Source: an uncultured Candidatus Saccharibacteria bacterium (GTDB taxonomy: Bacteria > Patescibacteriota > Minisyncoccia > Spechtbacterales > 2-12-FULL-38-22). Taken from it: a DNA stretch of 64,000 nt. Each line of letters opens with the position of its first letter. Position 1 is the first letter of the stretch. The translations under genes and the position numbers were made by a program. Below are positions 175-60,926 of this stretch, in pieces. The DNA lies in contig CAYMUG010000002.1 of assembly GCA_964393575.1 (NCBI GenBank), forward strand, positions 341 to 64,340, given 5' to 3'. Under the pieces are notes generated by a model, which worked only from the letters and a program-made list of their open reading frames with translations, was not told where the DNA came from and made no database searches.

Positions 175-798
175 TCACTTCCGAGTCCGAGCGGACGCCA
201 CACCGATGAAGTCGTCGCGAAGGTCGTCCCATAGGTGGCGGACGAGGAGATTCCACCCATCGAAGAAGCCGACGTTGAAGCGGCAGCCGACCAAGTGCAC
301 GGACGATGTCCTCACGTATACGTTCGGAACGAGACGGATACCCCGAACCTTGGCGTAGGTGGTTAAGAACCACGTTGCTTCGGCCGCGTTTGGAACGCGC
401 TCGTTGCCGTTGAGGAGAGCCTGCTGTTCATCCCACGTCTTGTTGATGGAATTGGGAGCAGGATCCTTGTGGACGACGAGCCACGTTGCCCCGACCGTGT
501 CGGAGCGAGCGAACGTCTGGCGATTGTCCGTGAACCACGGATCGTTCTTACGGTAGAAGAAATCCGTCGAGAGTTCGTGGATGTCCAGAAAGTTCATCTC
601 GTTCGGCGGGCCGGGAAGAACGGCGAAGCCGTTGTCGCGCGCCCACCGGAGCACTTTTTCTTCAGGAAGTGTCCATGCAAGCTCTTCGAGCTGCGTTGCG
701 GTGTACGGGGCGTCATACGCTTCTGCGACCTCCAGTGGTCTAATGAAGTCGTTACCAAGGATGTCGAAAGCTGGCTGAAACGTTGGAATGGTAGCCAT
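175..798 (-). CDS. hypothetical protein (207 aa) encoded in a GC-rich island
   Basis: It is a long ORF with AAGGAG 7 nt upstream of the ATG. Its GC content (~58%) is far above that of the rest of the window. I recognise no domain. Confidence 0.5.
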   Translation of the reverse strand: MATIPTFQPAFDILGNDFIRPLEVAEAYDAPYTATQLEELAWTLPEEKVLRWARDNGFAVLPGPPNEMNFLDIHELSTDFFYRKNDPWFTDNRQTFARSDTVGATWLVVHKDPAPNSINKTWDEQQALLNGNERVPNAAEATWFLTTYAKVRGIRLVPNVYVRTSSVHLVGCRFNVGFFDGWNLLVRHLWDDLRDDFIGVASARTRK

Positions 799-1342: not shown

Positions 1343-1365
1343 GGTTAGGTCGGCTCCGCCTCACA
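1343..1365 (-). promoter_or_regulatory. conserved 5' leader motif copy (GTGAGGCGGAGCCGA-N-ATG)
   Basis: It matches the leaders upstream of rpmA, mraY, rplI, sodN and sodX. Confidence 0.5.
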
Positions 1366-1427
1366 AAATACTTCAAACACTATAACTATGACTATGACAC
1401 AGCGCTCGTTGCGCGAGCGCATTAATT

Positions 1428-1467
1428 ATCGCGCTTTGCCTGCCGGCAGGCAAAGCGCGATAATGTC
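1428..1467. repeat. perfect 40-bp palindrome attatcgcgctttgcctgcc|ggcaggcaaagcgcgataat
   Basis: Read directly. It belongs to the GCCTGCC...GGCAGGC palindromic element family (also 93-116 and 56055-56100). Confidence 0.7.
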
Positions 1468-1539
1468 ATGGTTATGGTCATTATAATGGTGCGAGCGAAG
1501 CGAGTTGTTAATTATAATCCAATCTTATTATAAAGTTGT

Positions 1540-3205: not shown

Positions 3206-5134
3206 TTATACCGCATCTTCGGGATCCACGTCTATATCCCAGTCAGAGGGAATTACACGCAGCATCCCGTTTCTTAGTTTTAGGTTTTTATCTTTTCCGG
3301 GCCATTTAATAAGCATATACCAGCTATGTTTACTAGCGACAGTCGGAGAGGGACCCAGTATTTGAATTTTGTTATGCCTCGCGGTAGTTGAATTTTGAGC
3401 TTTCAACTGTTCTATTTGGGTTTCTATTTTTTTCCGCAGAACCTTTGCTTCGTTTTCGGCCTTTTCTGGATTTTTATGGGTGTAACTTAATTTTATAAGC
3501 TGGGAGTAAGGAGGATAATTAAGAGCTTTTCTCTTTTTCAATTCTTCGGAAAAGAATTTTTCAAAATCCTTTTCTTTTGCGTGTTTAAATACATCCATAT
3601 CGGGGTGATACGTTTGTATAATACAATTTTTCTTTGCGATATATTTAAGATGCCACAGTATATTAAATACTTGTTCTTCAGCGTTGTACATAGGAAGGGT
3701 GAGTATTGCATCCTGCATTACCGACGCAGTGATATCAACATCCGGAAGAAGTGAAGGTTTTAAGGCAATATGTGTTCCTATAAGCACGTCCGCCTCATTC
3801 TTAAATGCCCGGAATGCATTATCACGATCTTTTTGAGTGGGTGCAGAATCGGAATCAAGGCGCACTGTTTTTAATTCCGGCATCAGCTTATTTATTTCTT
3901 CAGCAATTTTTTGTGTACCCCCTCCTAATTGTTTAATTCTATAACCTTTACATTTTTCACATACCTGCGGAGGAGTTGTTTTTTTACCACAATGATGGCA
4001 AATAAGCACATGTCCTTTGTGTAATACTAATGCTTTTTCACACTCTGAACATTCTTTGACAAACCCGCAATCTCTGCATACCAAGGCAGACGCCAACCCC
4101 CGTCTGTTTATAAAAAGCAGGGCTTTTTCTCCTGTGTTCATTGTTTTAAGTTGGTTTTGTAGATCTATACTTAGTAAGGAGGTGTTCTTTTCTTTAAGTT
4201 CATTACTCATATCTATGACGCGGGGAGAAACAGTACGGGGCATTTCTTTGTGTATCTCCCATCTTTCTTCATGCGCTTTTTTATATAGTTCCAGAGTAGG
4301 TAAAATATCACCGGTTATAAAATCAGCACCCCTTTTTTCGGCAATTACTCTGCTCACGTATCTTGCATCTATTTTAGGGTGTTGAGTATCCGATTTGTGG
4401 GAAGAATTATTATTTTCATCAAGTATAACAGCACTTAATTTTCTCATAGGAGAGAATATTACCGAGCGTGTACCTGCTAAGTTATTTATTTCTCCTTTGT
4501 ATGATCCTTCCCATAAATTGCGCCACCGGTTGCGCCCGGCATTTTTAGGCAGGGTTTCTACATCTTTTAAAATATTTTTTGCGTTTTTCAGGTTGTAATA
4601 CTCCGGAAAAATTAATAAATTTCCGTCGTCCCCTATATATTTTTTGTAAAGTTTGTTTTTGTGCGGCGATATGATTAGACGTTTTTTAGAAGAGGTTTTA
4701 TTTGTTGCAAACACCGGCTCCGGCAAATCTTCTAACATTTTTAGAAGCGGTTTTGTGGGGGTAGAAAAAAATGGAGGTAACATTCTCTGCATCATAAGTC
4801 CTACCGGTGTATAATAATAGTCCGCCAGATGAACTGCTAAATCCAAAAATTCTTTGCAGAAGATAGGTTTTTTAACTACTGCACGATTAATCTTTTTTAG
4901 TGTAAAACCCGCTTTTCTTATCTCTTGCTTTGCATTTTCCGCCTCCTGCTCTCTGTATATTATACCTTGTATATTTCTTTTACCCACCGGAGCTTCAATA
5001 ATCTGACCTGTATAAAATTTATTCACACTGAAATATGTAAGCATCTGCATGTGGGGGCGCGGTAATTTTGTTAAAGGTATGATTTTATATATATACATAC
5101 GAGCAACGGTATTTCTGTGTTTATATCTTATCAT
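3206..5134 (-). CDS. priA: primosomal protein N' (PriA) homolog with degenerate ATPase motifs
   Basis: The N-terminal 3'-DNA-binding region and the Cys-rich zinc-binding region (CRDCGF..CSECE..CHHCG..CEKCKG) are present and colinear with PriA. Walker A is replaced by SPHKNKL and DEEH by DENN. Confidence 0.8.
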   Translation of the reverse strand: MIRYKHRNTVARMYIYKIIPLTKLPRPHMQMLTYFSVNKFYTGQIIEAPVGKRNIQGIIYREQEAENAKQEIRKAGFTLKKINRAVVKKPIFCKEFLDLAVHLADYYYTPVGLMMQRMLPPFFSTPTKPLLKMLEDLPEPVFATNKTSSKKRLIISPHKNKLYKKYIGDDGNLLIFPEYYNLKNAKNILKDVETLPKNAGRNRWRNLWEGSYKGEINNLAGTRSVIFSPMRKLSAVILDENNNSSHKSDTQHPKIDARYVSRVIAEKRGADFITGDILPTLELYKKAHEERWEIHKEMPRTVSPRVIDMSNELKEKNTSLLSIDLQNQLKTMNTGEKALLFINRRGLASALVCRDCGFVKECSECEKALVLHKGHVLICHHCGKKTTPPQVCEKCKGYRIKQLGGGTQKIAEEINKLMPELKTVRLDSDSAPTQKDRDNAFRAFKNEADVLIGTHIALKPSLLPDVDITASVMQDAILTLPMYNAEEQVFNILWHLKYIAKKNCIIQTYHPDMDVFKHAKEKDFEKFFSEELKKRKALNYPPYSQLIKLSYTHKNPEKAENEAKVLRKKIETQIEQLKAQNSTTARHNKIQILGPSPTVASKHSWYMLIKWPGKDKNLKLRNGMLRVIPSDWDIDVDPEDAV

Positions 5135-5276
5135 ATTTCCACATTGTATTTTGTATACGACATCCTAATATGCTATAATATATTTAAGGAATTACAATTA
5201 ATGTTTACAAGCTCGCTTTACTTGTAGTTTCAACAAGACATTTGCTATTCGGTATAGCGGGCTTACAAATTAATCT

Positions 5277-5507
5277 ATGAGTGTAGTATTTTGGGTACTA
5301 GTAGTCATACTTGTTCTTGCCGCCGGAGCTTATTGGTGGTTCTTCATGCGAAAAGGAGGCGGTAATAAAGAACGTGTAGATTTTAAGGAAGAAGGTAAGT
5401 CTTCTTCACAGGAAGGAAGCCAAAAACAGGACATGGGAGGAGAGAAGAGCTCAACTGATCAAGGAGGTGATGACAACAAACAACAGCCTGGTCAGCCGGG
5501 TATGTAA
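5277..5507 (+). CDS. small membrane protein (one TM followed by a Gly/Gln/Ser-rich tail)
   Basis: ORF with a hydrophobic N-terminus, followed by a terminator. Confidence 0.4.
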   Translation: MSVVFWVLVVILVLAAGAYWWFFMRKGGGNKERVDFKEEGKSSSQEGSQKQDMGGEKSSTDQGGDDNKQQPGQPGM

Positions 5508-5520
5508 TCAGAAATCTTAC

Positions 5521-5552
5521 AAAAAACCCCCGAGTACATCGGGGGTTTTTTG
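5521..5552 (+). terminator. rho-independent terminator (cccccgagtacatcggggg + T-tract)
   Basis: Hairpin followed by a T-run. Confidence 0.7.
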
Positions 5553-5577
5553 TTGGCAAAAAACGTAAAATGGTATA

Positions 5578-6531
5578 ATGTTATATATTATGCCTGATAT
5601 AGCCCCACAAGTTATAGTTGTTGTACTAAACTGGAATAACGCTGAAGATACTTTGCAATGTTTAGAGTCCTTGAAGCAAGTTGAATACCAAAGTTTTAAA
5701 GTTATAGTTGTGGACAACGGTTCTAATGATGATTCTCCTAAGGAAATAAAAAGTTTTCTCTACCAAACAAATGCTTATACTTCAGAATTTATCCAGAACT
5801 CCGAAAATTTAGGGTATGGCGGGGGAAATAATGAAGGGATAAGGATTGCTTTGAGAAAAGGGGCGGAATATGTTTTGATTTTAAATAACGATGTATCAGT
5901 TTCCCCCAGGTTTATCAATAAATTAGTAGAAGTAGCTGAGGCCAGAAAAAAAGCAGGGGTTTTGGCACCCTCTATATATTATAAGCGGGAACCTGAAATT
6001 TTGTGGTACGGAGGCCAAGCGCATATCAATTGGAAGAAGGTAGATAAAGAAATGATTAATATGTCTCTTGAAGGTAAAGAGCTTCCGGAGAATGCGCAGG
6101 TCAGGAGGACTGAATTTGTAACCGGAGCTTGTATGTTTGTAAGGAGAGCGGTTTTTGAAGAAGTAGGATTGTTTAGGGATGATTATTTTTTGTATTTTGA
6201 AGATGCTGATTTTTCTGAACGGGTAAAAAGTTCGGGGTGGAATTTGGTGTGGGTGCCCCATGCTAAAGTATGGCACAAGGTTTCGGCGACCAGTAGGGCG
6301 AGTTTGGGTGCGCCGAATATGAACTATTATAATACAAGAAACTCTATGTTGTTTGTGCGGAGGCATGGACCGGCTTGGGCAGGGTGGTATATACATTTGT
6401 GGGCTTACTTAAAATATATTAAACAAATAACTAAGCTTGTATTTTCCAGAAAATATAACCCGGAAACATCCAGGGCTGTATTAAGAGCAATAAAGGATTA
6501 CTATGGAAACAACTTAGGCAAATATAGTTAA
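5578..6531 (+). CDS. family 2 glycosyltransferase
   Basis: GT-A fold motifs are present (VVVLNWNN, VDNGSNDDS, a DxD-like motif). Confidence 0.8.
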   Translation: MLYIMPDIAPQVIVVVLNWNNAEDTLQCLESLKQVEYQSFKVIVVDNGSNDDSPKEIKSFLYQTNAYTSEFIQNSENLGYGGGNNEGIRIALRKGAEYVLILNNDVSVSPRFINKLVEVAEARKKAGVLAPSIYYKREPEILWYGGQAHINWKKVDKEMINMSLEGKELPENAQVRRTEFVTGACMFVRRAVFEEVGLFRDDYFLYFEDADFSERVKSSGWNLVWVPHAKVWHKVSATSRASLGAPNMNYYNTRNSMLFVRRHGPAWAGWYIHLWAYLKYIKQITKLVFSRKYNPETSRAVLRAIKDYYGNNLGKYS

Positions 6532-6654
6532 GCTCACTCCGTTCCGACTTAACGTAGGAACTCCGTTCACACTATTACAATAACCATAACCATTACATTA
6601 TTGCGCGAAGCGCAATAATTCACAATTCTTGATTCATGATTCTTAATTCTTTTT

Positions 6655-7815
6655 ATGAGCGCAGCGAATAAAATAAAAGTAGCCATAGATTGCCATAAAT
6701 TAGAAGATAAAACCGGAGCCCATAGAGCCGGTATAGGCAGACATCTATACCGTTTTCTTGAAGAGGCATCAAAACAAAAAGAACTTGAAGGCAAATTCAA
6801 ATTTTATTTGTATTTTAAAAGCGGAGTACCAAAAGACATACCTTTTTTGCAGGAGAAAATATTTGTTAACAAAGTAGCAAAACTACCTTTCTTTTTTCCG
6901 TTTTTCCGCCCCTCTTTTAATGTATTTTTTCATATAGCTATACCTATTTTAGCGTTAAAAGACAGAATAGACGTTGCGTTTTTCGCTTCGTTTATGCACC
7001 CCGCATTTTATATAGGCAAAACCGCAGTTGTTTTGACAAACGATATCTACTATGAATCCTCGCAACGCAGTCAACCGCTAAAATACCGCATAGGTTATAA
7101 ACTTTTTGCCACGTGGGCAGCCAAACGAGCTACAACCATAACCACGCAAACATATGCATCACGCAAAGAAATATCCAGATGTTATAATGTGCCTGAAGAT
7201 AAAATTATAGTTGTGCCTTTGGGGGCGGATTTTACAGAATTTACGCCGGAGGATAACGAAAAAGACAACTATATTTTATATGTGGGTCAAGCGTTCCCAC
7301 GTCGACATCTTCGCGAAACTATAAATGCGTTCAGGATTATTGCACCTGAATTTCCTCAACTGAAATTTATTGCAGTAGGATTAGATAAGTATAATCCTCC
7401 CATCATCGATGATTTGGCAAAAAAAACCAACAAAGAACTGGGGGAGGAAAGGGTGATAAGGAAAGAATCTGTTTCCGACGAAGAATTAAAGGAATTATAT
7501 AGAAAGGCACAAACATTTGTATATATTTCTTCTTCGGAAGCAATGGGCTTACCTCCACTTGAAGCCCTCGCTTCCGGCACTGTTCCTGTCGTTGCTGATA
7601 CACCCACTACCAATGAAATATTTGAAGATAAAGCGTTTTTTGTAGAGAATACAGAAAGCCCCCCAGCAATAGCGGAAAAAATAAAGAGATCAATTACAGA
7701 TAATGATAGAAGAAATTATATTCTGCAGAACAAAGATAAGATTTTACAAAAGTACACATGGAAAAAACACACCGATAAAATGTTGGAATTATTTAAGCAT
7801 ACCGTTCAAAAATAA
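6655..7815 (+). CDS. GT1/GT4-type glycosyltransferase
   Basis: The C-terminal EAMGLPPLEALASGTVPVV motif is typical of GT-B retaining transferases. Confidence 0.8.
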   Translation: MSAANKIKVAIDCHKLEDKTGAHRAGIGRHLYRFLEEASKQKELEGKFKFYLYFKSGVPKDIPFLQEKIFVNKVAKLPFFFPFFRPSFNVFFHIAIPILALKDRIDVAFFASFMHPAFYIGKTAVVLTNDIYYESSQRSQPLKYRIGYKLFATWAAKRATTITTQTYASRKEISRCYNVPEDKIIVVPLGADFTEFTPEDNEKDNYILYVGQAFPRRHLRETINAFRIIAPEFPQLKFIAVGLDKYNPPIIDDLAKKTNKELGEERVIRKESVSDEELKELYRKAQTFVYISSSEAMGLPPLEALASGTVPVVADTPTTNEIFEDKAFFVENTESPPAIAEKIKRSITDNDRRNYILQNKDKILQKYTWKKHTDKMLELFKHTVQK

Positions 7816-10790: not shown

Positions 10791-11875
10791 GTAAAAAAAA
10801 GAAAATTACAATCTCTGCTGTGTTAGCTACTGTCTTACTTCTGGGAATGGGAGCACTGTTTTTACATAGCTCTTCTAATGTTGTGACAGTAAAAGGTAAT
10901 GCTGATGTAGGAAAATATGAGAATTTTAGTGTTGAACAAAAAGACGAGCGTGTTAACGTTCTTGTCTTGGGTATGAGAGGTGCGGGTAACGGCGAAAACG
11001 GAGCACTTTTAGCGGATAGTATTATGCTTTTTAGTTTCGATAAAGAAAAAGAGGAGGCAGCTATGATTTCTGTACCCAGAGATTTATATGTTAAAATTCC
11101 GGAACACCCTAATAAAGAAAAAATTAATTATGCGTATGCGCTGGGTGAACAAAGAAGTCCCGGCGGAGGCGGACTTAGCTTAACGAAAGAAGTTGTTCAA
11201 TATGTTACCGGTGTACATATAGACCATGCTGTAGTTGCTAATTTTGAGGGTTTTGAGGAGGTAGTTGATATAGTAGGCGGAGTGGAGGTTTATCGTGATA
11301 GGCCTTTTTATGAATCACAACAATGGCAGTTTGAAGGAAATCCCAATAGTCCTTATTGGTTTAAACAGCAGAATACTGCAACAAACGACACTTCTTCTTT
11401 GGAAGAAAATGCTACGGGTACATCTTCCGAAAATCCGCCGGAATATTGGGTGTTTCATGTTCCGGCAGGTCGCAGTGTGCTTGACGGAGAATCCGCTCTC
11501 TATTACGTGCGTTCCCGCTTTACGAGTAATGACTTTGAACGCATGGAAAGACAACAAGAGGTCATGAAATCTCTAAAATCAAAGATTTTTTCACTGGGCA
11601 TTTTAAGCAACCCTTCAAAAGTATTTCAGATTTTGGATAGCTTGGGCAGAAATGTTAGAACTGATATGAGTTTGGGAGAAATAAACGAAGTGATTTCTCT
11701 GGCACAACAGCACTCGGATATGGATATCAAATCGATAACGCTGGATACATCCGAAAACGGAATGCTGCGTTCAAAAACATCACCCCAAGGCGCTTACATT
11801 CTTGTGCCTAAAACAGGGGAATTTGATAAAATAAGGGAGGAAATTAAAAATATTTTTAATAACAATCAACAATGA
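10787..11875 (+). CDS. LytR-CpsA-Psr (LCP) family cell-wall polymer phosphotransferase
   Basis: N-terminal TM anchor. The LCP core is present (VLVLGMRG...SIMLFSF...ISVPRDLYV...GFEEVVDIVGGVEV). Confidence 0.8.
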   Translation: MSKKKKITISAVLATVLLLGMGALFLHSSSNVVTVKGNADVGKYENFSVEQKDERVNVLVLGMRGAGNGENGALLADSIMLFSFDKEKEEAAMISVPRDLYVKIPEHPNKEKINYAYALGEQRSPGGGGLSLTKEVVQYVTGVHIDHAVVANFEGFEEVVDIVGGVEVYRDRPFYESQQWQFEGNPNSPYWFKQQNTATNDTSSLEENATGTSSENPPEYWVFHVPAGRSVLDGESALYYVRSRFTSNDFERMERQQEVMKSLKSKIFSLGILSNPSKVFQILDSLGRNVRTDMSLGEINEVISLAQQHSDMDIKSITLDTSENGMLRSKTSPQGAYILVPKTGEFDKIREEIKNIFNNNQQ

Positions 11876-13096: not shown

Positions 13097-14050
13097 TTGT
13101 ATATGAATTTTACCGAAATGTATAAAGAGGCAGTGCGCTTGGGCATGGAAGCGGATCCACGAGGCAGGGAAGCGCCTCAAAAAACACTGCAAGAAAATAA
13201 AAATAAATACGAAGGGTCTTCGGAAAAAGATAAAGAATTTTTTGATACAGAAGGTCTTGAAAATCCCTATCCGGATACAAGGATACTCTATCGCCCGGAA
13301 GAAGATCCTGATATTAAAAAAATAATAGCGGGTATTGATATAGATGCCGGAGAGTTACAGGTTGCAAAAGCTATGCAGGACATAGACGCTGTATTTTCTC
13401 ACCACCCCCGAGGAAAAGCATTGGCTTCTTTAGGCGAAGTTATGCCTATGCAGGCAGAGATATTGAATATGTATGGTGTACCCATAAATGTAGCCGAAGC
13501 TCTTCTTGAAAAAAGAATCTCGGAAGTATCGAGAGGTCTTTCTCCGGGAAACCATTTTCGTTCTGTAGATATTGCCCGTTTACTGCATATGCCTTTTGCA
13601 TGTACTCATACTGTAACGGACAATATGGCGTACCAATTCCTTAAAAAAGAAGTGGAAGATAAAGAACCTGAAAAAGTTGGAGATATTTTTGATATGCTTT
13701 TGGATGTCCCCGAATACAAAAAAGCTGAAAATATGGGTCTCGGTCCTAAATTATTTTCCGGCAAAAAAGAAAATAGAGCAGGCAAAATTGCGGTTACCGA
13801 AGTAACCGGAGGAACTGAAGGCGCTAAAGATATTTATGAAAAAATGGCAAATGCAGGCGTGGGAACAATTATAGCCATGCATCAGTCAGAACAACACAGA
13901 GAAAATGCGGAAAAAGCACACATTAATGTTATAATCTCGGGACATATGAGTTCCGATTCTATGGGTATGAATCAATTATTGGATTATTATGAAAGAAATG
14001 GTATAGGTGTGGTCCCTGCAGGTGGTTTAATAAGAGTATCGCGCAATTAA
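13097..14050 (+). CDS. Nif3-like dinuclear metal-centre protein (tentative)
   Basis: Motifs HHP, CTHTVTDN (AHTxxD-like) and a C-terminal ISGHMSSD (GHY-like) are present. The N-terminus is atypical. Confidence 0.45.
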   Translation: MYMNFTEMYKEAVRLGMEADPRGREAPQKTLQENKNKYEGSSEKDKEFFDTEGLENPYPDTRILYRPEEDPDIKKIIAGIDIDAGELQVAKAMQDIDAVFSHHPRGKALASLGEVMPMQAEILNMYGVPINVAEALLEKRISEVSRGLSPGNHFRSVDIARLLHMPFACTHTVTDNMAYQFLKKEVEDKEPEKVGDIFDMLLDVPEYKKAENMGLGPKLFSGKKENRAGKIAVTEVTGGTEGAKDIYEKMANAGVGTIIAMHQSEQHRENAEKAHINVIISGHMSSDSMGMNQLLDYYERNGIGVVPAGGLIRVSRN

Positions 14051-14135
14051 GCTCACCGCCACCGGCGGTTCGCACATTTGACCATTAACCATTGACAGAT
14101 ATACTTACACCGCAAGCATCAAAGGTCAAAGGTTA

Positions 14136-14165
14136 AATGTTTTTGTGAACGTAGCGAACAAAATT
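14136..14165 (+). promoter_or_regulatory. conserved 5' leader motif copy (GTGAACGTAGCGAACAAAATT-ATG)
   Basis: Same motif family as upstream of rpmA, mraY, sodN and sodX. Confidence 0.5.
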
Positions 14166-16353: not shown

Positions 16354-16418
16354 ATTCTACTTACAAAACAAAAAATAACAAGTTGTCTTTGTTAGTCGGT
16401 TCTATTGTAACAACCACT

Positions 16419-16456
16419 AAAAAGGTCGGCTAAACCAATGGTTTAGCCGACCTTTG
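16419..16456. terminator. bidirectional terminator hairpin aggtcggctaaacc-aa-tggtttagccgacct
   Basis: It lies between convergent pyrG and rpmA. A paralogous copy is at 57081-57126. Confidence 0.65.
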
Positions 16457-16482
16457 TTCACCAAGAAAAGATGTAGAGATTG

Positions 16483-16755
16483 TTATAACACTTCTATAAC
16501 CGTTGCTTTTCTTTGAGTGCCGTCAAATTTTGTTTTCCGTATTTTTTTGAAGTGCACTACACCTTGACGCTTTGCATATAAGGTGTCGTCAGCACCTATG
16601 CGTACATTTTGCCCGGGTATATACTTTGTGCCTCTTTGACGCACAAGAATCATTCCTGCTTGTGCTTTTTGACCGCTAAATAATTTTACGCCCAAGCGCT
16701 TAGATGCTGAATCTCTTCCTAGTTTTGTTGATCCTGATGCTTTTGTTTTCGCCAT
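16483..16755 (-). CDS. rpmA: 50S ribosomal protein L27
   Basis: Conserved L27 core ([26 protein letters not shown]). Confidence 0.9.
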
Positions 16756-16885
16756 GATTATTTGTTCGGCTCCGCCTCACAAAAACATTTGACAATTGAC
16801 TTTTAACCTTTGACTGTGCTCGTTTTGCGAGCGCTCGGAAGATCGCGGGACGATTTTGTCAGGAGTCAGGTGTCGAATGTTAGAT
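16756..16885 (-). repeat. copy A of a ~130-bp intergenic leader/promoter element (leader motif + GCGCTCG-N-CGAGCGC palindrome + 4 heptad TGTCA-like repeats)
   Basis: It is about 88% identical to 36047-36172, which lies upstream of mraY. Confidence 0.7.
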
Positions 16886-16937
16886 GTGCTGGTAGAGTGA
16901 GCTTGCCGAAGGATTGTATTAATGCTATTTTATTCTC

Positions 16938-17273
16938 ATGAATTTTTTTGAGAATAATAAAAAAGAATTATTCAATGCGACCCTTATAGGATTAGGGATA
17001 ATTACGGTATTCTCTCTGGGGTATTTTACCGCGAATTTAATTAATGTGCAAAAATCCCCTATAGAAGTTGACCAGTTAGATTATACGGATAAAAACAATA
17101 AAAATCAAGTCCCTAAAGAAGGTAGGGTCGTAGGCAGCGTGAATTCTGATAAATATCATTATACTGACTGTCCCGGCGCCCAAATGATAAATAAAGAAAA
17201 TAAAATATTTTTCGCGAGCGTAAAAGAAGCACAAGACGCGGGATACCAACTTGCTGCAAATTGCAACAAATAA
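16938..17273 (+). CDS. membrane-anchored small protein with a C-terminal YHYTDCP...GYQLAANC metal-binding-like module
   Basis: ORF with an N-terminal TM segment. The Cys/His spacing resembles small Zn-ribbon-like secreted domains. Confidence 0.45.
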   Translation: MNFFENNKKELFNATLIGLGIITVFSLGYFTANLINVQKSPIEVDQLDYTDKNNKNQVPKEGRVVGSVNSDKYHYTDCPGAQMINKENKIFFASVKEAQDAGYQLAANCNK

Positions 17274-23463: not shown

Positions 23464-23500
23464 AAAAACTCGGTTCAATCTATAGGTTGAGCCGAGTTTT
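23464..23500. terminator. terminator hairpin actcggttcaatc-tata-ggttgagccgagt (paralog of 1047-1084)
   Basis: The stem is nearly identical to the copy at 1053-1081. Confidence 0.6.
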
Positions 23501-23587
23501 GTGTTTATATATAACACTCATATAAAACTATGGCTGATGCAATTAAATATGTAGACACAGGAAAAAATTTGTGTTATTATAAATACA

Positions 23588-35002: not shown

Positions 35003-36046
35003 TTAACCTACAAGACCTATTATAATACCAAGTCCTGCGAATACTGCCGATATCACCCAAAAACGCATTACTATTTTGGGTTCACTCCATCCTATGGCCT
35101 GGAAATGATGATGTATGGGCGTGCTCTTAAATAATTTTTTATTAAATACTTTTCTCCAAAATATTTGCAGTATTACAGATGCCGATTCTAAGACCAAAAC
35201 AAATCCGATAAGCGGAAGTACAAATACCTGGTTGGTTAACATAGCAATAACTCCTAATGTTACACCTAAAGACATACTTCCTGTATCTCCCATAAAAAAT
35301 CGTGCCGGGGGTATATTAAACCAAAGAAATGCTAAGAGTGCACCTGCGACAACTATTGTAAAAGCGGCTAATTGGAACATCCCTGCTGCAAATGCAAGGA
35401 TGCCGTAACTTGCAAAAGCAATCATAAGCACACCGCCTGAAAGGCCGTCCAGCCCGTCTGTTTCATTGGTTGAAAAACTGGTTGCGAAAATTATAAATAT
35501 AAAGAAAGGTATATACCAGATACCTATACTAAAGTCTCCTGCAAACGGTATGTGTATTATATCCCAATCAAGTTTAGCCCAGAACCACCATGCCCCCACG
35601 CCGGCAATCAGAGTATATAAGAGCGCCCTTTGTTTCATGCTTATCCCCCCTCCTACCGGACCAAGTTTAAAAATACCCAATAAATCGTCAGCGAGACCTA
35701 CAATTGCAGCAGCAAAAAGTGCGGTTAATGGCAAATATGTTTCTCCTCTATCCAGAAAATTAAACTCTGCCAGGGCGGACCCAGGAAATACTTTATTAAT
35801 TAACCAGAATATTAATACGAGTATACCTACGGTGCCCCATATTAAAATACCACCCATTGTGGGTGTACCTGCTTTGTGTTTGTGCAACTTAGCAAATATA
35901 GGCGCATTAACGCTTTGTCTGATCTGTTTTCCCAGGTTGTATTTATATAGAAAATGCGTTAGTAGAGGAGTAGAAAAAAGAGCAACTACGAACGCAATGG
36001 TCCCCAGCCCGAACATTCGGGCTAATTCAACAATTTGAAGCTCCAT
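35003..36046 (-). CDS. mraY: phospho-N-acetylmuramoyl-pentapeptide transferase
   Basis: MraY TM topology with GLADDLLG. The start is placed at MELQIVE on the basis of the leader-motif alignment. Confidence 0.9.
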   Translation of the reverse strand: MELQIVELARMFGLGTIAFVVALFSTPLLTHFLYKYNLGKQIRQSVNAPIFAKLHKHKAGTPTMGGILIWGTVGILVLIFWLINKVFPGSALAEFNFLDRGETYLPLTALFAAAIVGLADDLLGIFKLGPVGGGISMKQRALLYTLIAGVGAWWFWAKLDWDIIHIPFAGDFSIGIWYIPFFIFIIFATSFSTNETDGLDGLSGGVLMIAFASYGILAFAAGMFQLAAFTIVVAGALLAFLWFNIPPARFFMGDTGSMSLGVTLGVIAMLTNQVFVLPLIGFVLVLESASVILQIFWRKVFNKKLFKSTPIHHHFQAIGWSEPKIVMRFWVISAVFAGLGIIIGLVG

Positions 36047-36172
36047 AGATTTGTTCGGCTTCGCCTCCAAAAACATTTAACAATTGACTTTTAACTTTTG
36101 ACTGCGCTCGCTTTGCGAGCGCCCGGAAAATCGCAAAACGATTTTGTCAGGAGTCAGATGTCAAATGTCAGC
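36047..36172 (-). repeat. copy B of the ~130-bp leader/promoter element
   Basis: It matches 16756-16885, sharing the leader motif, the GCGCTCGCTTTGCGAGCGC palindrome and the heptads TGTCAGG/AGTCAGA/TGTCAAA/TGTCAGC. Confidence 0.7.
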
Positions 36173-36187
36173 TGGGCGGAGCGAGCT

Positions 36188-37369
36188 TTATTCTTTCCAG
36201 ATATACGCCTTTTTTACCCAGTTTAAAAGATTTCGTGTGGCTTCCACTCTATCCTTAGCGTTAAGCGTGGCTACTACCAAGTACTTTTGTTTATTGGGGG
36301 TTTCAGAAAGTACAGTCATAGAAGGACCAGCTTCTTCCGTAAATCCTGTTTTTCCGGCAACTACACCATCGTAAGCATCCAATAGTGCGTTTAAGTTTAT
36401 CCAATAGTGCGTAATATCTTTATTGCTTACTTCCACCGTGGCGTTGGGTTGATTTAAAATCTCCCGTAGCACCTCGTTCTCCCATGCGGCGTACATAATC
36501 TGTGCCACCTCATGGGCTGTAGATATATTTTTTTCGTTTAAACCGGTAGGATCTTCAAAGGAGGTGTTCGTGAGGTTTAACTCTCCTGCTTTTCTGTTCA
36601 TTAATTCTACAAAAGACGGACCTCCTCCGGAGTTATTATTTTCGTCATAATAAGTTTGGAGGGCAACACCGGCATCATTACTGCTTTCAAGGAGTAATGC
36701 TTGCAAAAGTTGTTTTGTGGTCAGCTTTTCACCCTCTATTAACCCCGCTGAATTTCCTCTTGTTTCTATTGCCTCTTCCTGTACTGTTATTTGTTCGTTA
36801 AGATCTAAATTATCCACTACTACCATTGCCGTTACAAGCTTAGAGATGCTGGCAATAGGTCTTGGTTCAGAAATATTTTTACCATACAAAATTCTTTTAG
36901 AGGGAACATCCATGGCAATTGCTGATTCTGCATTTATATCTTTAAACTTTACCCCCCAATTTCTTGCCGGTAAAAGTTCGGGCCGTGAATTAGCTCTTAT
37001 AAAACCCGTAAGAGAAGTTCTGATTTCAGTTGTTTGAGGTAAAAATGCCGGTTTTGTTTTGTATTGTTCCAGGAACTTTTCTCTTTCAGTAAGGCGCAGA
37101 CCTGATAAATGCACCTTCTCTCCTTCCGATTGTTTTTCTCCCGCCCCTTCTTCTGCCTGAGGAGCAACCCTAAGAGATGCAGCCCAATCTTTAACTGTTT
37201 GGTTGCCGTAATACAAAAACCCTAATAACAAAAGCGGAAAAATAACAGCAACAGTAATAATGCTGGCCTTTTTTCTGTGCCTTTTTATGATGTTTGTACT
37301 TTCTCTTACACGGCTTTTTACGAATCTGGCCCGTGCATCAGCTGAATATTTAAGTTTTTTTGTGTCCAT
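36188..37369 (-). CDS. D-alanyl-D-alanine carboxypeptidase (S11, PBP5/6-like)
   Basis: SISKL (SxxK), SGN-like and KTG motifs, with an N-terminal TM. Confidence 0.8.
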   Translation of the reverse strand: MDTKKLKYSADARARFVKSRVRESTNIIKRHRKKASIITVAVIFPLLLLGFLYYGNQTVKDWAASLRVAPQAEEGAGEKQSEGEKVHLSGLRLTEREKFLEQYKTKPAFLPQTTEIRTSLTGFIRANSRPELLPARNWGVKFKDINAESAIAMDVPSKRILYGKNISEPRPIASISKLVTAMVVVDNLDLNEQITVQEEAIETRGNSAGLIEGEKLTTKQLLQALLLESSNDAGVALQTYYDENNNSGGGPSFVELMNRKAGELNLTNTSFEDPTGLNEKNISTAHEVAQIMYAAWENEVLREILNQPNATVEVSNKDITHYWINLNALLDAYDGVVAGKTGFTEEAGPSMTVLSETPNKQKYLVVATLNAKDRVEATRNLLNWVKKAYIWKE

Positions 37370-42203: not shown

Positions 42204-42450
42204 AAACTATCCTAAAATTTTATCTGAAAATAGGGTTTTTGTTTGAAGTAAATTGTTTATCGTATGAATAGTTCCTCTATATTCCTCCTATATTAGTACT
42301 GCCTGTCAGATATTTTCATATTGATATATATAAATACCTTCTTAGTGGCATCTTTAACAAGCTATTGAGCTATTACGAGTATATTGACAAATATCTCTCG
42401 TTACCATTAAGATGATGGGGTGCCCTGTATGCGGACCTTAGGAGCGTGTC

Positions 42451-42606
42451 ATGAGCGAAAACACCGCACACGAGACCGGTTCTACGGAGAACACCCTTCC
42501 TATTCTTTTCAACGTTGCCGAAAGGGCGACTGATGTTTCCGTAGAATCTAAGCGTTTCGGAAGCGAAAAAGACACATTCTTAAACGGCAGCAGCGATACG
42601 GTGTAG
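42451..42606 (+). CDS. candidate graspetide (microviridin-like RiPP) precursor peptide, 51 aa; not in the supplied ORF track
   Basis: ATG preceded by AGGAG at a 6-nt spacing. The leader-like stretch TLPILFNVAERA is followed by a Thr/Ser/Asp/Glu/Lys-rich tail (TDVSVESKRFGSEKDTFLNGSSDTV). It sits immediately upstream of the ATP-grasp ligase. Confidence 0.5.
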   Translation: MSENTAHETGSTENTLPILFNVAERATDVSVESKRFGSEKDTFLNGSSDTV

Positions 42607-42709
42607 TAAACACTTAAGTACCTTTAAATAACGTGACATAGGAGGGGGTGCGGTAAATGCCGCGCCCCCAATATATGTACGGCAACCGAATGCGGAAAGG
42701 AGGGTACAG

Positions 42710-43693
42710 ATTATACTTATTATTTCTCACCACGAAGACACACATACTCTTCATGTATGCGAATTATTAGATAGTATTTACGGCGTCGAATACTGCGTAC
42801 TGGATTACAAGGAATATCCCGCTAACTTAAATATATCTTATGTTTTTGGGGCAAATAACAAAAACCTTCTCATTGAAATAGACCAAAATCGCACAATTGA
42901 ATTAAAGGATATTCGTTCTGTGTGGTTTAGAAGGCCTACATCCCCCCTCGCCTCTAACAAGGTTGAAGATAGAAATATACGTCAATATATAGAACAAGAA
43001 TCGAATGTTATGCTGTCTAATTTGATTCACGCAATACCCGGACAAAGATGGATTAGCAACCCAATCAATATGGAGCAGGCAGCGTATAAACCATATAACA
43101 TCAGAGTGGCTCAAGAGATTGGTTTTGAAATTCCTGAAACAATTATTTCCAATTCTCCGGAAGGTGTAGAGAAATTTATGCACAACCTGAACTTAGAATA
43201 TGTTGCACTAAAACCCGTGGAAACACCCTGGATTAAGTCAACTGACAATTCCTTTTTATTTTTTACAAAAAAAATACATAAAAACCGGATTTCGGAATGG
43301 CGAAAACAAATACAAGTTTGTCCGGTTATACTACAGGAATATATAGAAAAAAGCGTGGAGTTGCGCATTACTGTAATAGACAACCAGGTTTTTCCATGCG
43401 CGATACACTCTCAACGATCAGAACTCACCAAAGAAGACTGGCGAAAATATGACATTGACAACACGCCGCACGAAACATTCCAACTTCCGGAAGATATAAA
43501 ACAAAAATGCGTCGCCTTGCTAAAAAATCTCGGGATTAGGTTTGGATGTATTGATATGATTTTAACCCCTGAGAATCGATATGTGTTTTTGGAGATAAAT
43601 CCCGCCGGACAATGGCTTTGGATTGAAGAATTAACCGGTCTTTCCATTTCTAAAACTCTTACACACGCATTGGTTTATCCAACTGAAGCGTAA
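42710..43693 (+). CDS. ATP-grasp ribosomal-peptide maturase (MdnC/MvdD microviridin-ligase family) with a non-ATG start
   Basis: A pre-ATP-grasp domain (ILIISHHEDTHTLHV...SVWFRRP) is followed by the ATP-grasp fold. The reading frame is open from 42632. A strong AGGAGG is followed 6 nt later by ATT at 42710. No ATG, GTG or TTG occurs in frame before the GTG at 42920. Confidence 0.75.
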   Translation: MILIISHHEDTHTLHVCELLDSIYGVEYCVLDYKEYPANLNISYVFGANNKNLLIEIDQNRTIELKDIRSVWFRRPTSPLASNKVEDRNIRQYIEQESNVMLSNLIHAIPGQRWISNPINMEQAAYKPYNIRVAQEIGFEIPETIISNSPEGVEKFMHNLNLEYVALKPVETPWIKSTDNSFLFFTKKIHKNRISEWRKQIQVCPVILQEYIEKSVELRITVIDNQVFPCAIHSQRSELTKEDWRKYDIDNTPHETFQLPEDIKQKCVALLKNLGIRFGCIDMILTPENRYVFLEINPAGQWLWIEELTGLSISKTLTHALVYPTEA

Positions 43694-47456: not shown

Positions 47457-48416
47457 TTGCCTAAAGTTCCCGCTCCCGTTGTTGTGGCGATCGTTATTTC
47501 AATTCTCGCGCTATGCGGTGCGGGATTTGTTGTTTTTAAGAAGAACGCTGAAGCCGAACAAGCTCGACTTCAGAATCAGCTTGAGCATTCGCAATCTCGA
47601 GCTGATACTTTGAAAAGCACTGTTGACGATATCTCCCCAAAGGTGAAGTCACTAAAAACCCGCGCCGAAGAGGCCGAAGAGTTAGAAAAAGAGAACTCCC
47701 GACTAAGGAAGGAGCTTAACAAAGAGAGAACAACCACGGAAACAACACAAACCAGAACGGAAGAAGAAGAGGAGAAGGAAGAGGAAGAGGTTTCTGAAAC
47801 ACCTTCCTCTTCATCGCCCAACCCCTCGCCTACACCGGAACCCAATCGGGTTCGCGGTCATGGCGAAAAGATGGTTTTGACGTTTGATGATGGAGGTGCG
47901 CCAAATAAAGTCACGGCCATTCTGAACATTCTGAACAATAAAAATGTTCAAGCTGTGATGTTCCTGAACGGAAGATGGGCACACGCCCATCCCGACTTAG
48001 TTCGCCGTATGCGAGCCGAGGGACATATCGTAGCAAACCATACTTGGTCTCACGCGAAGCTCACCGAACTTCCCGATGAGGAAGTTCGGAGGGAAATCCG
48101 GCGTGGCGCGCAGGAAGGTTCGGATCTGTTCCGCCCTCCGTACGGAGCCATTGATGCCCGTGTTCGCGGCATTGTGCAAAGCATGGGTCTTCGGACTATG
48201 CTCTGGGACATTGACACCCGCGACTGGGACAACACCTCGGCAGACGAGATTACCCGGATCACACTGAATAACGCCCGGCCGGGAGCTGTAGTGCTTCTGC
48301 ATCTCCACGGAGAACATACCGCAGAAGCGTTGCCGCGCATGATCGACGGTCTGCGCAATCAGGGCTATACATTTGGCCTTCCCGCCCCCGAGAAGGAGGA
48401 AAGTAATGCTACGTAA
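47457..48416 (+). CDS. polysaccharide deacetylase (CE4/NodB) with N-terminal TM, coiled coil and an acidic/Pro-rich linker
   Basis: The NodB motifs TFDDG, HTWSH and RPPYG are present. The gene is GC-rich. Confidence 0.8.
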   Translation: MPKVPAPVVVAIVISILALCGAGFVVFKKNAEAEQARLQNQLEHSQSRADTLKSTVDDISPKVKSLKTRAEEAEELEKENSRLRKELNKERTTTETTQTRTEEEEEKEEEEVSETPSSSSPNPSPTPEPNRVRGHGEKMVLTFDDGGAPNKVTAILNILNNKNVQAVMFLNGRWAHAHPDLVRRMRAEGHIVANHTWSHAKLTELPDEEVRREIRRGAQEGSDLFRPPYGAIDARVRGIVQSMGLRTMLWDIDTRDWDNTSADEITRITLNNARPGAVVLLHLHGEHTAEALPRMIDGLRNQGYTFGLPAPEKEESNAT

Positions 48417-48696
48417 AAAGTTGGTAGCTGCCATACTGATGGCCGTACTCGCAACAGCGAGTGCTGCCTCAGCAGCCCATGAGGTAATTGAGGCAAGCGA
48501 CCTCCGGGAAGAGAATACTCAACTTCAGGATGAAGTTGAATCACTTTCCGAGGAGCGTGAAACCCTTGAACGCTTCGCTCGGCTCCAAGAAAAACACGAA
48601 GAGCTGAGCGGGAAAGCGAAGAAAACCGACCAGAAAGTGCGAGATCTGAAAGAGAAAAAAACAGGGCTTACGCGAGCATTGGAGGAGCACCGATGA
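48406..48696 (+). CDS. small membrane-anchored coiled-coil protein
   Basis: ORF with a TM segment and heptad repeats. GC-rich. Confidence 0.45.
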   Translation: MLRKKLVAAILMAVLATASAASAAHEVIEASDLREENTQLQDEVESLSEERETLERFARLQEKHEELSGKAKKTDQKVRDLKEKKTGLTRALEEHR

Positions 48697-49442
48697 GAAA
48701 CGAATTTTTCGCTAGAGTCAATTTCTTCGTTGGCTTTACTGCAATCACGGCGATCATTGTCGCCGTTAGTGCCGCTTTGCTCCTCGTCACGAACGTCGAG
48801 GAGCCCCAACAGGCCAATGCTCAGCTAAAAGAGCAGAAGGCCGAGCTCTCTAGCAGCGTCAGCGAGATGCGCGAAAAGCATAAGGTGAGCGGGAAGCCTT
48901 CCCTCTCTCCTCAGGTTTCTGAACTCGAGGAGGGGGTTCAGAGACTTCGCTCGGAGGTCGGTACTCTTTCGGGGAAAAAGAAAAACCTCGAAAAAGAGGT
49001 TGCCGGACTTCGTGAGAATGTGCGCGAAGCCCGGGAAGCCCGGGAAGCCAGAGAAGCCGAAGAGAGGCAATCCCAATCCCGCCAGAGTCAGAGCGCTCAT
49101 AGCGGTCGCACTCCGGCAAGTGCGCGGGCACTCGGCCGCCAGATGGCCGCCCAACGAGGTTGGGCAGGCCGTCAGTGGCCATGCCTGAATGAGCTCTGGA
49201 GACGGGAAAGTGGATGGCGCTATAACATCCAAAACCATACCCACCGGCGCCAAGGTCGAGCTATAGAAAACTCGGCCTACGGAATCCCGCAGGCGTTACC
49301 TGGCAGGAAAATGGCCAGCCACGGCGGCGACTGGCGCACCAACCCACGTACACAGATAGCGTGGGGGTTGGACTACATCGCCGACCGTTATGGAACGCCG
49401 TGCAACGCACTGGCATTCCATAACCGAAAAAACTGGTACTGA
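48693..49442 (+). CDS. membrane-anchored coiled-coil protein with a C-terminal lysozyme-like (SLT/GH23-like) transglycosylase domain
   Basis: C-terminal W.CL..LW.RESGW...N......SAYGIPQA...WGLDYI..RYG.PC resembles actinobacterial SLT-type domains. Encodes REAREAREA in its coiled-coil region. GC-rich. Confidence 0.5.
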   Translation: MRNEFFARVNFFVGFTAITAIIVAVSAALLLVTNVEEPQQANAQLKEQKAELSSSVSEMREKHKVSGKPSLSPQVSELEEGVQRLRSEVGTLSGKKKNLEKEVAGLRENVREAREAREAREAEERQSQSRQSQSAHSGRTPASARALGRQMAAQRGWAGRQWPCLNELWRRESGWRYNIQNHTHRRQGRAIENSAYGIPQALPGRKMASHGGDWRTNPRTQIAWGLDYIADRYGTPCNALAFHNRKNWY

Positions 49443-54406: not shown

Positions 54407-54555
54407 CTACTGTATTTTAAACCAAGCCCACACAAAGTACAAGGAGTGATTCACAAACTGCCATATTGCCATATTGATGCCCGCCGCCCGCTTCGCCGAA
54501 CGAGGCGAACAGGCGCGCTGAGGTAATTTAATAATATAGCAATGTGGTAATTTAT

Positions 54556-55435: not shown

Positions 55436-55466
55436 TGTTTTGTTCACTGCGTTCACAAAATCGTAA
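55436..55466 (-). promoter_or_regulatory. conserved 5' leader motif copy (GTGAACGCAGTGAACAAAACA-ATG)
   Basis: Leader motif family. Confidence 0.45.
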
Positions 55467-55499
55467 CCCGTATTACTTATTACGGCGAGCGTAGTAAAC

Positions 55500-55955
55500 T
55501 TATTTAGCTTGATTCTCCATATTTTTACGGACCGCATCGTAATCATATCCTTCTTTTGTGCGTGCAAATGCTTCACCTACTTCATCCACACACTCAAGAA
55601 GATGTTGCGCATCTTTTTCTTCTACCGTTTTTTTTGCCTGGCCGGCGGCCTTTGTAGCCCTCCAGAATAAATCGTGAATATCGGTTCCCCCCGCTTCTTC
55701 CAGATGATGCGGTTTAAAGTAATCCGTCCAAAGAACCCACAAGTGATGCTTAACGTATTCTGCTCTTTCCTCTTTAATTAAAAGCGCGCGTTGCTTTTCT
55801 ACATCACTTTCAGAATTATGATAAATTTTAACCGCATTATAGACGCTTTGCGCTTCAATGCGTGCCTGTGCGGGATCATATACTCCACAGAAAAGGTCGC
55901 AATGAGCATACACATCTCCTGCGTCTATTAGTTTTGAGATAAGATTCTTAAACAT
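55500..55955 (-). CDS. sodN: nickel superoxide dismutase precursor (leader + HCDLFCGVY Ni-hook)
   Basis: HCDLFCGVYDPAQARIEAQSV...HHLWVLWTDYFKP aligns along NiSOD. The leader peptide precedes His1. Confidence 0.85.
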   Translation of the reverse strand: MFKNLISKLIDAGDVYAHCDLFCGVYDPAQARIEAQSVYNAVKIYHNSESDVEKQRALLIKEERAEYVKHHLWVLWTDYFKPHHLEEAGGTDIHDLFWRATKAAGQAKKTVEEKDAQHLLECVDEVGEAFARTKEGYDYDAVRKNMENQAK

Positions 55956-60734: not shown

Positions 60735-60926
60735 ATGACTTATGACAAGCTACCATAAACTGTAATGCGTAATATGTAACAAGACCGAAGCGCCGAAGGC
60801 GCTTCCCGTACGGATTACTAGTTACAGATTACAGATTACGATTTTGTTTGATTATTCTCTTATTTTATATACTAACATATAAAACGAAAGCGGCCCGAAG
60901 AAGATCGGACCGCGTAAGTACTTGGA

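Follow-up and report, generated by a model that had tools for sequence, protein, structure and literature searches.

In a 64,000-nt stretch of contig CAYMUG010000002.1 (positions 341 to 64,340 of the contig; here called the window), two closely similar intergenic elements of about 130 bp lie upstream of rpmA and mraY. A sequence-only reading had taken them either for a dispersed repeat resembling a miniature inverted-repeat transposable element (MITE) or for a promoter or operator cassette. The first of these ideas is supported in kind, in that copies occur at unrelated loci and the orthologous sites of relatives are empty. We propose, with a probability of roughly 0.6, that the 130-bp element is one family (family A, three copies in the window) of a lineage-specific dispersed mosaic palindromic repeat, comparable to repetitive extragenic palindromes (REPs), bacterial interspersed mosaic elements (BIMEs) and REP doublets forming hairpins (REPINs), or to palindromic MITEs. 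Our confidence in any specific molecular function is lower. As in MITEs, the element is short and non-coding and has three copies in 64 kb, two of them 85-88% identical at unrelated loci; as in REPs and REPINs, it is extragenic and consists of inverted hairpin-forming units around a spacer, with a degenerate outer partner. On this classification, rpmA and mraY would resemble each other upstream because two repeat copies share descent, and not because the genes form a regulon. Copy counts throughout cover the 64-kb window of one contig.

The two elements (16756-16885 and 36047-36172) are identical at 111 of 130 columns of a global alignment, which is 85%, or 88% without the four gap columns; random 126-nt windows used as a control gave a mean of 48% and a maximum of 62%. 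The ~88% identity read from the letters alone was thereby borne out, and a repeat finder independently paired the two over 110 nt at 87% (family D1). Homology extends past 16885 and 36172, out to AAGCTCRC at about 16904 and 36187. The family-A copies and their end motifs are the following.

16760..16904, minus strand: copy 1, in the rpmA 5' leader (rpmA ATG at 16755)
36050..36187, minus strand: copy 2, filling the spacer from the S11 peptidase stop codon (36188-36190) to the mraY ATG (36046)
1346..1505, minus strand: copy 3, upstream of a 67-amino-acid open reading frame (ORF; ATG at 1342), similar at the level of modules
16885..16904, minus strand: far-end motif of copy 1, AAGCTCACTCTACCAGCACA on the minus strand, a degenerate inverted copy of the leader that pairs with the leader complement (plus strand)
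16760..16785, minus strand: terminal GA/GNA hairpin of copy 1, UUUUU-GUGA-GGC-GGA-GCC-GAAC-AAAU, its end 8 nt from the ATG
36053..36068, minus strand: terminal hairpin of copy 2, G-GA-GGC-GAA-GCC-GA-AC, with one U deleted

Each family-A copy is a dyad of ~145 nt in which two complementary heptad arms enclose two GC-rich central hairpins. The gene-proximal arm of copy 1 has four heptads, TTGACAA TTGACTT TTAACCT TTGACTG on the plus strand (16789-16816), with a counterpart at 36077-36104 in copy 2. The distal arm reads TGTCAGG AGTCAGG TGTCGAA TGTTAGA on the plus strand of copy 1 (16857-16884) and TGTCAGG AGTCAGA TGTCAAA TGTCAGC in copy 2 (36145-36172), where Tandem Repeats Finder reports period 7 and 3.9 copies over 36145-36171. 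Between the arms, central hairpin 1 is the palindrome GTGCTCG-TTTT-GCGAGCGC in copy 1 (16816-16834) and GCGCTCGC-TTT-GCGAGCGC in copy 2 (36104-36122), and central hairpin 2 is ATCG-CGGGA-CGAT (ATCG-N5-CGAT) in copy 1 (16842-16854) and the longer AAAATCG-N5-CGATTTT in copy 2 (36127-36145). The leader motif beside the gene is exact at 16766-16778 and 1350-1362 and has one mismatch at 36055-36067; the far end repeats it in inverted, shortened and imperfect form (GCTCCGCC / GGCGGAGC; 8 bp in copy 2) and so falls short of a clean terminal inverted repeat. In predicted folds the proximal arm at 16789-16816 pairs with the distal arm at 16857-16884, copies 1 and 2 share a Y-shaped consensus fold, and the elements fold far more stably than their shuffles, with minimum free energy z-scores of -4 to -8.

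Every sub-motif that the sequence-only reading had listed (palindrome, four heptads, leader) was found in copies 1 and 2. Its layout was right in the palindrome and heptads, missed the mirror array and the hairpin at 16842-16854, and placed the outer end too near; the TTGTCAA/TTGTTAA sequence is present, not as a separate motif but as part of the mirrored four-heptad array complementary to the first. The third partial copy that it saw before the 67-amino-acid ORF stands by its shared modules, namely a leader identical over 19 nt and the palindrome GCGCTCG..CGAGCGC, and needs correction in its span (1346-1505, not 1343-1420) and in its global identity with copies 1 and 2, which at 58-60% is inside the random-window range. 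In copy 3 the ATCG..CGAT hairpin 2 is replaced by an enlarged, perfect 40-nt palindrome (1425-1464), and the far end, GCGAGCGAAGCGAG (1491-1504), sits between TTAACA and CATTAT/TATAAT.

The window genes include fmt, def, priA, rplI, pyrG, rpmA, mraY and aspS. The MraY encoded here has a fully identical counterpart on a 71,140-nt NCBI/Logan contig and shares 64-71% identity with proteins that bear the names Candidatus Spechtbacterales or Spechtbacteria, and in an MraY scan of a genome collection the best species representatives were Parcubacteria/Paceibacterota metagenome-assembled genomes at identities of 63% or less; the terminal hairpin was absent from all relatives in that scan. Judged by these protein identities, the host is an uncultured Parcubacteria bacterium of the candidate phyla radiation (CPR), near Candidatus Spechtbacterales. 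Gene order around rpmA and mraY is conserved in relatives, which allows a junction-by-junction comparison (numbers with the prefix L denote comparison loci or contigs from relatives, metagenomes and phages).

Small divergent ORF to rpmA: 182 nt here; 49, 49, 44 and 50 nt in L272, L273, L274 and L275
S11 peptidase to mraY: 141 nt here; 43 nt in L082 and 24 nt in L084
Glutaredoxin to Ni-superoxide dismutase (Ni-SOD): 211 nt here; 5 nt in L084
Ni-SOD to signal peptidase: ~65 nt here; 11 nt in L084
Upstream gene to rplI: 115 nt here; 19 nt in L275

The short and empty orthologous spacers of relatives indicate that the family-A copies are lineage-specific insertions. Elsewhere the mraY junction has an unrelated 126-nt spacer (L206) or a 290-nt spacer (L207). 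The latter, in a Spechtbacterales relative (3243-3532), holds a same-class element whose arms differ: it contains TAA-GCTCGC, AGCT-based heptad arms, GCCTGCC..GGCAGGC and the hairpin GTGAGGCGGAGCGAAT, followed by further hairpins and the ATG. Either an insertion occurred there independently or this one site turns over rapidly. L081, a contig from a Logan assembly of this organism, ends precisely within the copy 2 palindrome, as is usual for assemblers at repeats.

The sequence-only reading had named, as the finding that would overturn it, a local duplication without conserved sub-motifs elsewhere; the sub-motifs in fact recur elsewhere in the window and in other metagenomes. When all window spacers were read, about ten more showed the same plan. 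Toward the downstream gene it runs from GCTCRC, often right after a stop codon, through an arm of 2-5 tandem units, mostly of 7 nt, one or two perfect GC-rich hairpins, and a complementary arm to TTTT-RTGA-..-GAAY-AAAA and the ATG. These elements are listed here.

14048..14165, plus strand: before rplI; TAA-GCTCAC, hairpin GTGAACGTAGCGAAC, then ATG; 37.3 bits
6529..6677, plus strand: before a glycosyltransferase gene, which starts at the ATG inside the hairpin (6655); 40.2 bits
55956..56166, minus strand: glutaredoxin/Ni-SOD spacer; GCCTGCC..GGCAGGC module, as in copy 3
55436..55500, minus strand: short element in the spacer between sodN and the signal-peptidase gene; 38 bits
2503..2649, minus strand: before fmt; GTAAC/GTTAC arms around AAAGCACC-TTCG-GGTGCTTT; the hairpin ATG (2523) is the start; 37.1 bits
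3132..3208, minus strand: minimal version before def; 30 bits
9414..9689, plus strand: long spacer with several period-7/8 arrays that have mirrored partners; degenerate hairpin GTGAAAGCAGTAAAC
60735..60860, minus strand: heptad-armed hairpin lacking the terminal hairpin; GTAAT/GATTAC arms around GAAGCGCC-TTCG-GGCGCTTC
54440..54555, minus strand: octamer-armed GC-rich hairpin lacking the terminal hairpin; TGCCATAT twice

The heptads of the rplI element read TTGACCA TTAACCA TTGACAG ... CAAAGGT CAAAGGT TAAATGT, and in the def element ATTCGCTACGTT, right after the priA stop, is complementary to AACGAAACGAAT, right after the def ATG (3153). Among the 54 tandem-repeat rows in the window, 12 have period 7, and nearly all of these 12 are intergenic. 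Heptad sequence varies by element (TTGACnn, GTAACnn, ATAACnn, GATTACA, AGCTnnn), TGTCA heptads being confined to family A, while the inverted and mostly mutually complementary arrangement is kept. The heptads had been read as iteron-like units that could bind a regulator; their changing sequence together with the kept complementarity argues instead for pairing between strands. GCTCRC directly follows a stop codon in at least six cases, at 6529, 14048 and 36190 in the window, at two sites in L207 (one per strand, of which the mraY-junction site was inspected) and in L137; two further cases, TAG-CTCAC in L154, were read from sequence. The GCCTGCC..GGCAGGC module occurs at 1438 (copy 3), at 56054 (sodN element) and in L207. 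The plan is also seen in the metagenome contigs L137, L154 and L187, the L154 example lying upstream of tuf. The elements of L137 and L187, which form a second subfamily pair, lie upstream of different genes and are closely similar by eye (identity not computed). Of 120 loci from a metagenome search for the family-A leader pattern, only about 10 proved informative; the matches were mostly due to chance, in GC-rich coding DNA. Separately, a convergent gene junction at 49582-49660, beside a GC-rich island, has the period-6 arrays TGTCAG x2.5 and GTCATA x4.3, and its TGTCAG unit resembles the family-A heptad core.

The leader motif is itself a hairpin in which a GNA triloop caps a GC stem, with two tandem G.A pairs and then a U/A stem (UUUU-R-U with A-Y-AAAA) below it, and can be generalized as UUUU-R-U-G.A-A.G-[2-4 bp]-GNA-...-G.A-A.G-A-Y-AAAA. 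This terminal hairpin is 23-29 nt long and has a GC inner stem of 2-4 bp, the 15-mer form having 2 bp, family A 3 bp and a single L154 copy 4 bp; that of copy 1 is a 17-mer variant, a separate hairpin according to RNAalifold, and scores 16.6 bits with covariance model R1. A strict structural pattern matched six times in the window, against 0.18 expected from shuffles, and 0.3-1.3 times per 100 kb in other loci, all of those without the U/A flanks. In an alignment of 19 sequences, much of which the search pattern had fixed and two rows of which were hand-picked, 96.7% of cells were paired and both sides had changed in 13 cells; this was reached by 0 of 500 shuffles, and slid controls gave 43-64% paired. 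A scan of viral contigs that left positions 1, 5, 11 and 15 free as R or Y found 14 distinct sites, at which pair 1-15 was A-U in 11, G-C in 3 and mixed in none, and pair 5-11 was A-U in 7, G-C in 5, G-U in 2 and A-C in none. In a control with positions 6 and 10 also freed, 28 sites lacking C6-G10 gave 10 mixed 1-15 combinations. Between the homologous phage sites of L209 and L248, pair 6-10 changes from C-G to U-A.

The covariance model gave six strong window hits (30-40 bits), all on the sense strand at a start codon, among them def and fmt, neither of which had been part of the seed; the three family-A variants are likewise on the sense strand next to the start codon. Over 1.4 Mb of other loci it found three hits in L154, one in L187, a borderline one in L001 and no others. 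In GTG-type copies the ATG lies 5-12 nt after the hairpin, typically 6, and in the three copies of the ATG type (def, fmt, 6655) the start codon is the ATG inside the hairpin, with the closing pair changed from G-C to A-U. The hairpin gives the first codons of three genes (MSAANKI, MNETNKI, MSETNKI). In phage contigs it occurs in long non-coding stretches and is sometimes arrayed, with six sites in 83-nt tandem units in L222 and three sites in L225, where the repeat is 473 nt long. Several phages of 135-163 kb that come from a single sample (among the loci L212, L216, L219, L223 and L224) have three such hairpins in one non-coding region, one of the three being a GNRA-tetraloop variant, ACGAGC-GAUA-GCGAGU. 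Two metagenome contigs of higher GC (0.47-0.49), L205 at about 11770-11860 and L192 at about 3056 (minus strand), carry tandem ~22-nt GAG(G)CGNAG(C)CGA-type hairpins right after a stop codon.

The mraY ORF reads back through the copy 2 terminal hairpin (36046-36076). Public gene calls include an MraY with a 10-residue N-terminal extension, MFLEAKPNKS (P0001, 357 vs 347 amino acids), and rplI, sodN and the signal-peptidase gene are prone to similar over-extension from the hairpin GTG.

Several simpler accounts of the hairpin were tried and rejected. A conserved N-terminal peptide (MSAANKI) would be out of frame with the ATG at rpmA, the 67-amino-acid ORF, L187 and L154 tuf, and the phage copies are mostly non-coding; the terminal hairpin is therefore a nucleotide-level motif. 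A leaderless promoter, with a -10 just before the hairpin, was discarded because the candidate hexamers simply form the arm's final heptad and do not have the conserved A at their second position. A Shine-Dalgarno (SD) role for GAGG/GGAG in the family-A leader meets a distance of at least 14 nt to the ATG, and other variants lack GAGG/GGAG. A hammerhead-like core (UGA-stem-GAAA) lacks the catalytic C3 and G5, and Rfam is silent there. Rfam gave no match in the window at gathering score and none at E<=5 at any element, and nothing at the hairpins in phage or CPR loci (13 related loci, gathering score); a scan of the window for tRNA and tmRNA had no match.

As far as covariation can tell, the terminal hairpin is a well-supported structured signal outside Rfam. 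We suggest tentatively, as a possibility short of an expectation, that it is an undescribed nucleic-acid signal common to one CPR lineage and diverse phages, acting as a portable translation-start module or else recognized at the DNA level, as N4 hairpin promoters are. If it were a portable module, the hairpin would let a mobile palindrome live inside operons, sitting where the SD helix docks or marking a processing site that regenerates a short leader.

A number of observations weigh against our interpretation of the element as a dispersed, transcribed palindromic repeat. In family A the antisense (plus) strand folds better than the sense strand (-55 vs -37 kcal/mol for copy 1), the antisense strand keeps 7-8 wobble pairs at sites that differ between copies 1 and 2 and the sense strand 2, and among nine elements the more stable strand is antisense in four, sense in two and tied in three. 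No compensatory changes were seen in the stems of family A itself among its two or three copies. The heptad arrays of the element at 6529-6677 are non-complementary, and the heptads are therefore not explained by pairing alone. Mini-hairpins with GNA triloops are much more stable as DNA than as RNA (PMC13037366). As regards mobility, target-site duplications were looked for at the boundaries of copies 1 and 2 (AAGCTC... / ...GAACAAAT) and none was visible, the flanks in relatives being too diverged to pin the exact insertion point; and a Pfam scan of the ten unassigned ORFs of the 64-kb window found no transposase and no REP-associated tyrosine transposase (RAYT). The elements may instead have grown in place by slippage and gene conversion.

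One alternative is that the element is a host-evolved cis-acting RNA device made in place, either an RNase III-type processing or stabilising site or a switch in which a terminating ribosome would melt the GCUCAC:GUGAGC closing helix and free the start-codon hairpin, giving translational coupling. Such a device is consistent with GCTCRC directly after the stop codon in at least six cases, with the tight hairpin-to-ATG spacing, typically 6 nt, with the constant orientation relative to genes and with the presence of elements in highly expressed operons, as before tuf in L154. We nevertheless consider it doubtful, because two copies that share 85-88% identity at unrelated loci, like the pair L137 and L187, require duplication to new sites, copy 1 has no upstream co-directional gene, relatives manage without the element, and the sense strand is not the better-folding one.

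It is also conceivable that the functional form is single-stranded or extruded DNA, recognized by HUH or RAYT proteins or serving as a priming signal or an N4-type hairpin promoter. Mini-hairpins of the type d(GCGNAGC), extraordinarily stable as DNA and far less so as RNA, are found where single-stranded DNA is primed (G4, ssiA) and, as GCGGAGC, in the hairpin promoters of N4 (PMC13037366). The arrays of the same hairpin in non-coding regions of phage contigs and the arms' inconsistent preference for the mRNA strand would suit a DNA form, as would the missing target-site duplication, which fits single-strand transposons. This explanation appears unlikely, however, given that the ten window ORFs scanned include no gene for an HUH protein, a RAYT or an N4-like polymerase, that the G.A hairpin is always on the sense strand beside a start codon, which transposition alone hardly explains, and that the outer inverted copy is degenerate, whereas REPINs keep both.

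The remaining explanation is the promoter or operator cassette. Scans of 16400-17000 and 35950-36300 found no sigma-70 -35/-10 pair with 16-18 bp spacing inside copies 1 or 2, and the single promoter-like site in 16400-17000 lies outside the repeat.

16927..16954, minus strand: promoter-like TTCTCA-16-TAAAAT, upstream of copy 1

This site is now about 22 nt plus the 145-nt element away from the rpmA ATG. The promoter scanner was applied to the window; in relatives, TAAAAT/TATAAT, read directly from sequence, lies 6-19 nt before the rpmA ATG (L272, L274, L275). The rpmA leader of relatives is apparently very short or absent. Because the promoter-like site is upstream of the element, copy 1 would lie within the rpmA transcript, as 5' untranslated region between that site and the ATG. 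Copies 1 and 2 contain no intrinsic terminator (GC-rich stem plus T run); classic T-run terminators are present elsewhere in the window (repeat families D2 and D11). In copy 3 and the sodN element a -35/-10-like pair brackets the far-end motif, and some members of the class may carry a promoter; family-A copies 1 and 2 do not. The proposal that TGTCA/TTGAC heptads bind a regulator and bring about growth-linked co-regulation of ribosomal and cell-wall genes can draw on these two promoter-like pairs, on TTGACA-like hexamers that recur in the proximal arm and on the tandem 7-bp operators, direct and inverted, known for the omega repressor of pSM19035, yet we judge it very unlikely: copies 1 and 2 lack a promoter, with the rpmA site upstream of the insertion; relatives lack the element at both genes and have TAAAAT/TATAAT close to the rpmA ATG; heptads differ between elements; the arrays are arranged as inverted partners flanking GC hairpins; and the class precedes unrelated genes, namely fmt, def, the glycosyltransferase gene, rplI, sodN, the signal-peptidase gene and the 67-amino-acid ORF.

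We return to the palindromic repeat, the reading that we favour, and to its known relatives. REPs, BIMEs and REPINs of Enterobacteria and Pseudomonas are likewise short, dispersed, extragenic imperfect palindromes and mosaics of modules, often lie between co-directional genes in operons, and are co-transcribed, as the elements here would be. A REPIN, two inverted hairpin-forming units around a spacer, matches the inverted order of terminal hairpin, core and terminal hairpin seen here. In contrast to REPs and REPINs, the hairpin foot has the conserved flanks UGA/GAA and no GTAG, the ten scanned ORFs include no RAYT, and the arms are built of tandem heptads. Moreover, the outer unit is degenerate, the inner one adjoins the start codon or includes it, and the elements keep a fixed orientation relative to genes. 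Correia/NEMIS elements of Neisseria and other palindromic MITEs (ERIC/IRU, RUP, BOX) are 100-160 bp long with inverted ends and many copies; they insert near genes, are co-transcribed, form long hairpins that RNase III can cut and can alter the expression of their neighbours. A Correia element is bounded by terminal inverted repeats of 26 bp, duplicates TA and carries a site for integration host factor, whereas here no duplication is seen and the ends are unequal; we know of no parent insertion sequence for the elements described here. Rickettsia palindromic elements are likewise palindromes that can be absorbed into reading frames, but they insert in frame inside genes, whereas the present elements lie at gene starts and in spacers and share no sequence similarity with them. 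With d(GCGNAGC) and N4 hairpin promoters the terminal hairpin shares a GC clamp and a GNA triloop, family A having GCGGAGC or GCGAAGC; it differs in the extra tandem G.A step, the U/A stem and the adjoining cellular start codons, so that the resemblance serves as a lead only. To our knowledge, no N4-like polymerase is known in this lineage. Operators of the omega ribbon-helix-helix protein (pSM19035) and plasmid iterons are also tandem 7-bp direct or inverted arrays upstream of genes; they have one consensus per regulator and overlap promoters, whereas here the consensus varies, the arrays form the two complementary sides of a hairpin, and copies 1 and 2 show no promoter overlap.

For the mode of action of a palindromic repeat at these sites we propose the following. 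Since the element contains no terminator and is situated either past the rpmA promoter-like site or between two genes read in the same direction, it would be transcribed as part of an mRNA. It would then fold on itself, so that its ends meet and the upstream stop codon or promoter comes about as near to the start codon as in an uninterrupted spacer. Such end-to-end folding would explain how insertions are tolerated in essential operons of a mostly SD-less genome; SD-like GGAG/GAGG at -8 to -13 precedes about 9 of the 61 window genes, and most starts are preceded by A/T-rich sequence. The terminal hairpin would supply the local upstream context for translation initiation at the ATG. Any effect on expression would act through mRNA structure; neither a promoter in common nor a regulator bound to the heptads would be involved. 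Judging from REP and Correia elements, such effects could plausibly concern mRNA stability, processing or translational coupling.

Other features of the window were noted in passing. GC-rich islands at 1-1000 and 47457-49647 (0.51-0.54 vs about 0.39 elsewhere) are probably acquired DNA; the first holds an ORF at 175-798 (minus strand) with no Pfam match, and the second holds a polysaccharide deacetylase gene and coiled-coil ORFs. Classic SD sites occur at three of the second island's four ORFs (47457, 48693 and the adjacent 46855), unlike at most window genes. A second repeat family consists of 40-nt bidirectional terminator-like hairpins, AAAAAGGTCGGCTAAACC..GGTTTAGCCGACCTTTTT, at gene ends (D2, I2; 1048-1087, 16419-16458, 23464-23503 and 57081-57120). 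Between divergent genes, 42204-42919 is 716 nt without a long ORF, GC-rich in the middle by eye and without an Rfam match. Gene orientation flips from minus to plus at about 5.3 kb (5135-5577) and from plus to minus between about 16 and 24 kb, where cumulative GC skew peaks; these could be replication landmarks or could simply follow gene strand.

Dispersed palindromic repeats are already known; what is new here is their occurrence in a CPR bacterium, with arms built of heptads, one fixed orientation and a hairpin at the start codon that has counterparts in phages. Our literature search found no description of dispersed palindromic repeats in CPR/Patescibacteria. For annotation, the similarity upstream of rpmA and mraY is no ground for inferring a regulon, and the GTG or ATG inside the terminal hairpin misleads gene callers, as the mraY example shows. 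The small hairpin, with its covariation, sharp lineage distribution and phage counterparts and with no Rfam family, offers a defined target. CPR/Patescibacteria genomes are regarded as streamlined; in this one, roughly a dozen operon spacers in 64 kb appear to have been enlarged 3- to 40-fold by self-folding elements not present in relatives, which bears on how small genomes tolerate selfish or structural DNA in essential operons.

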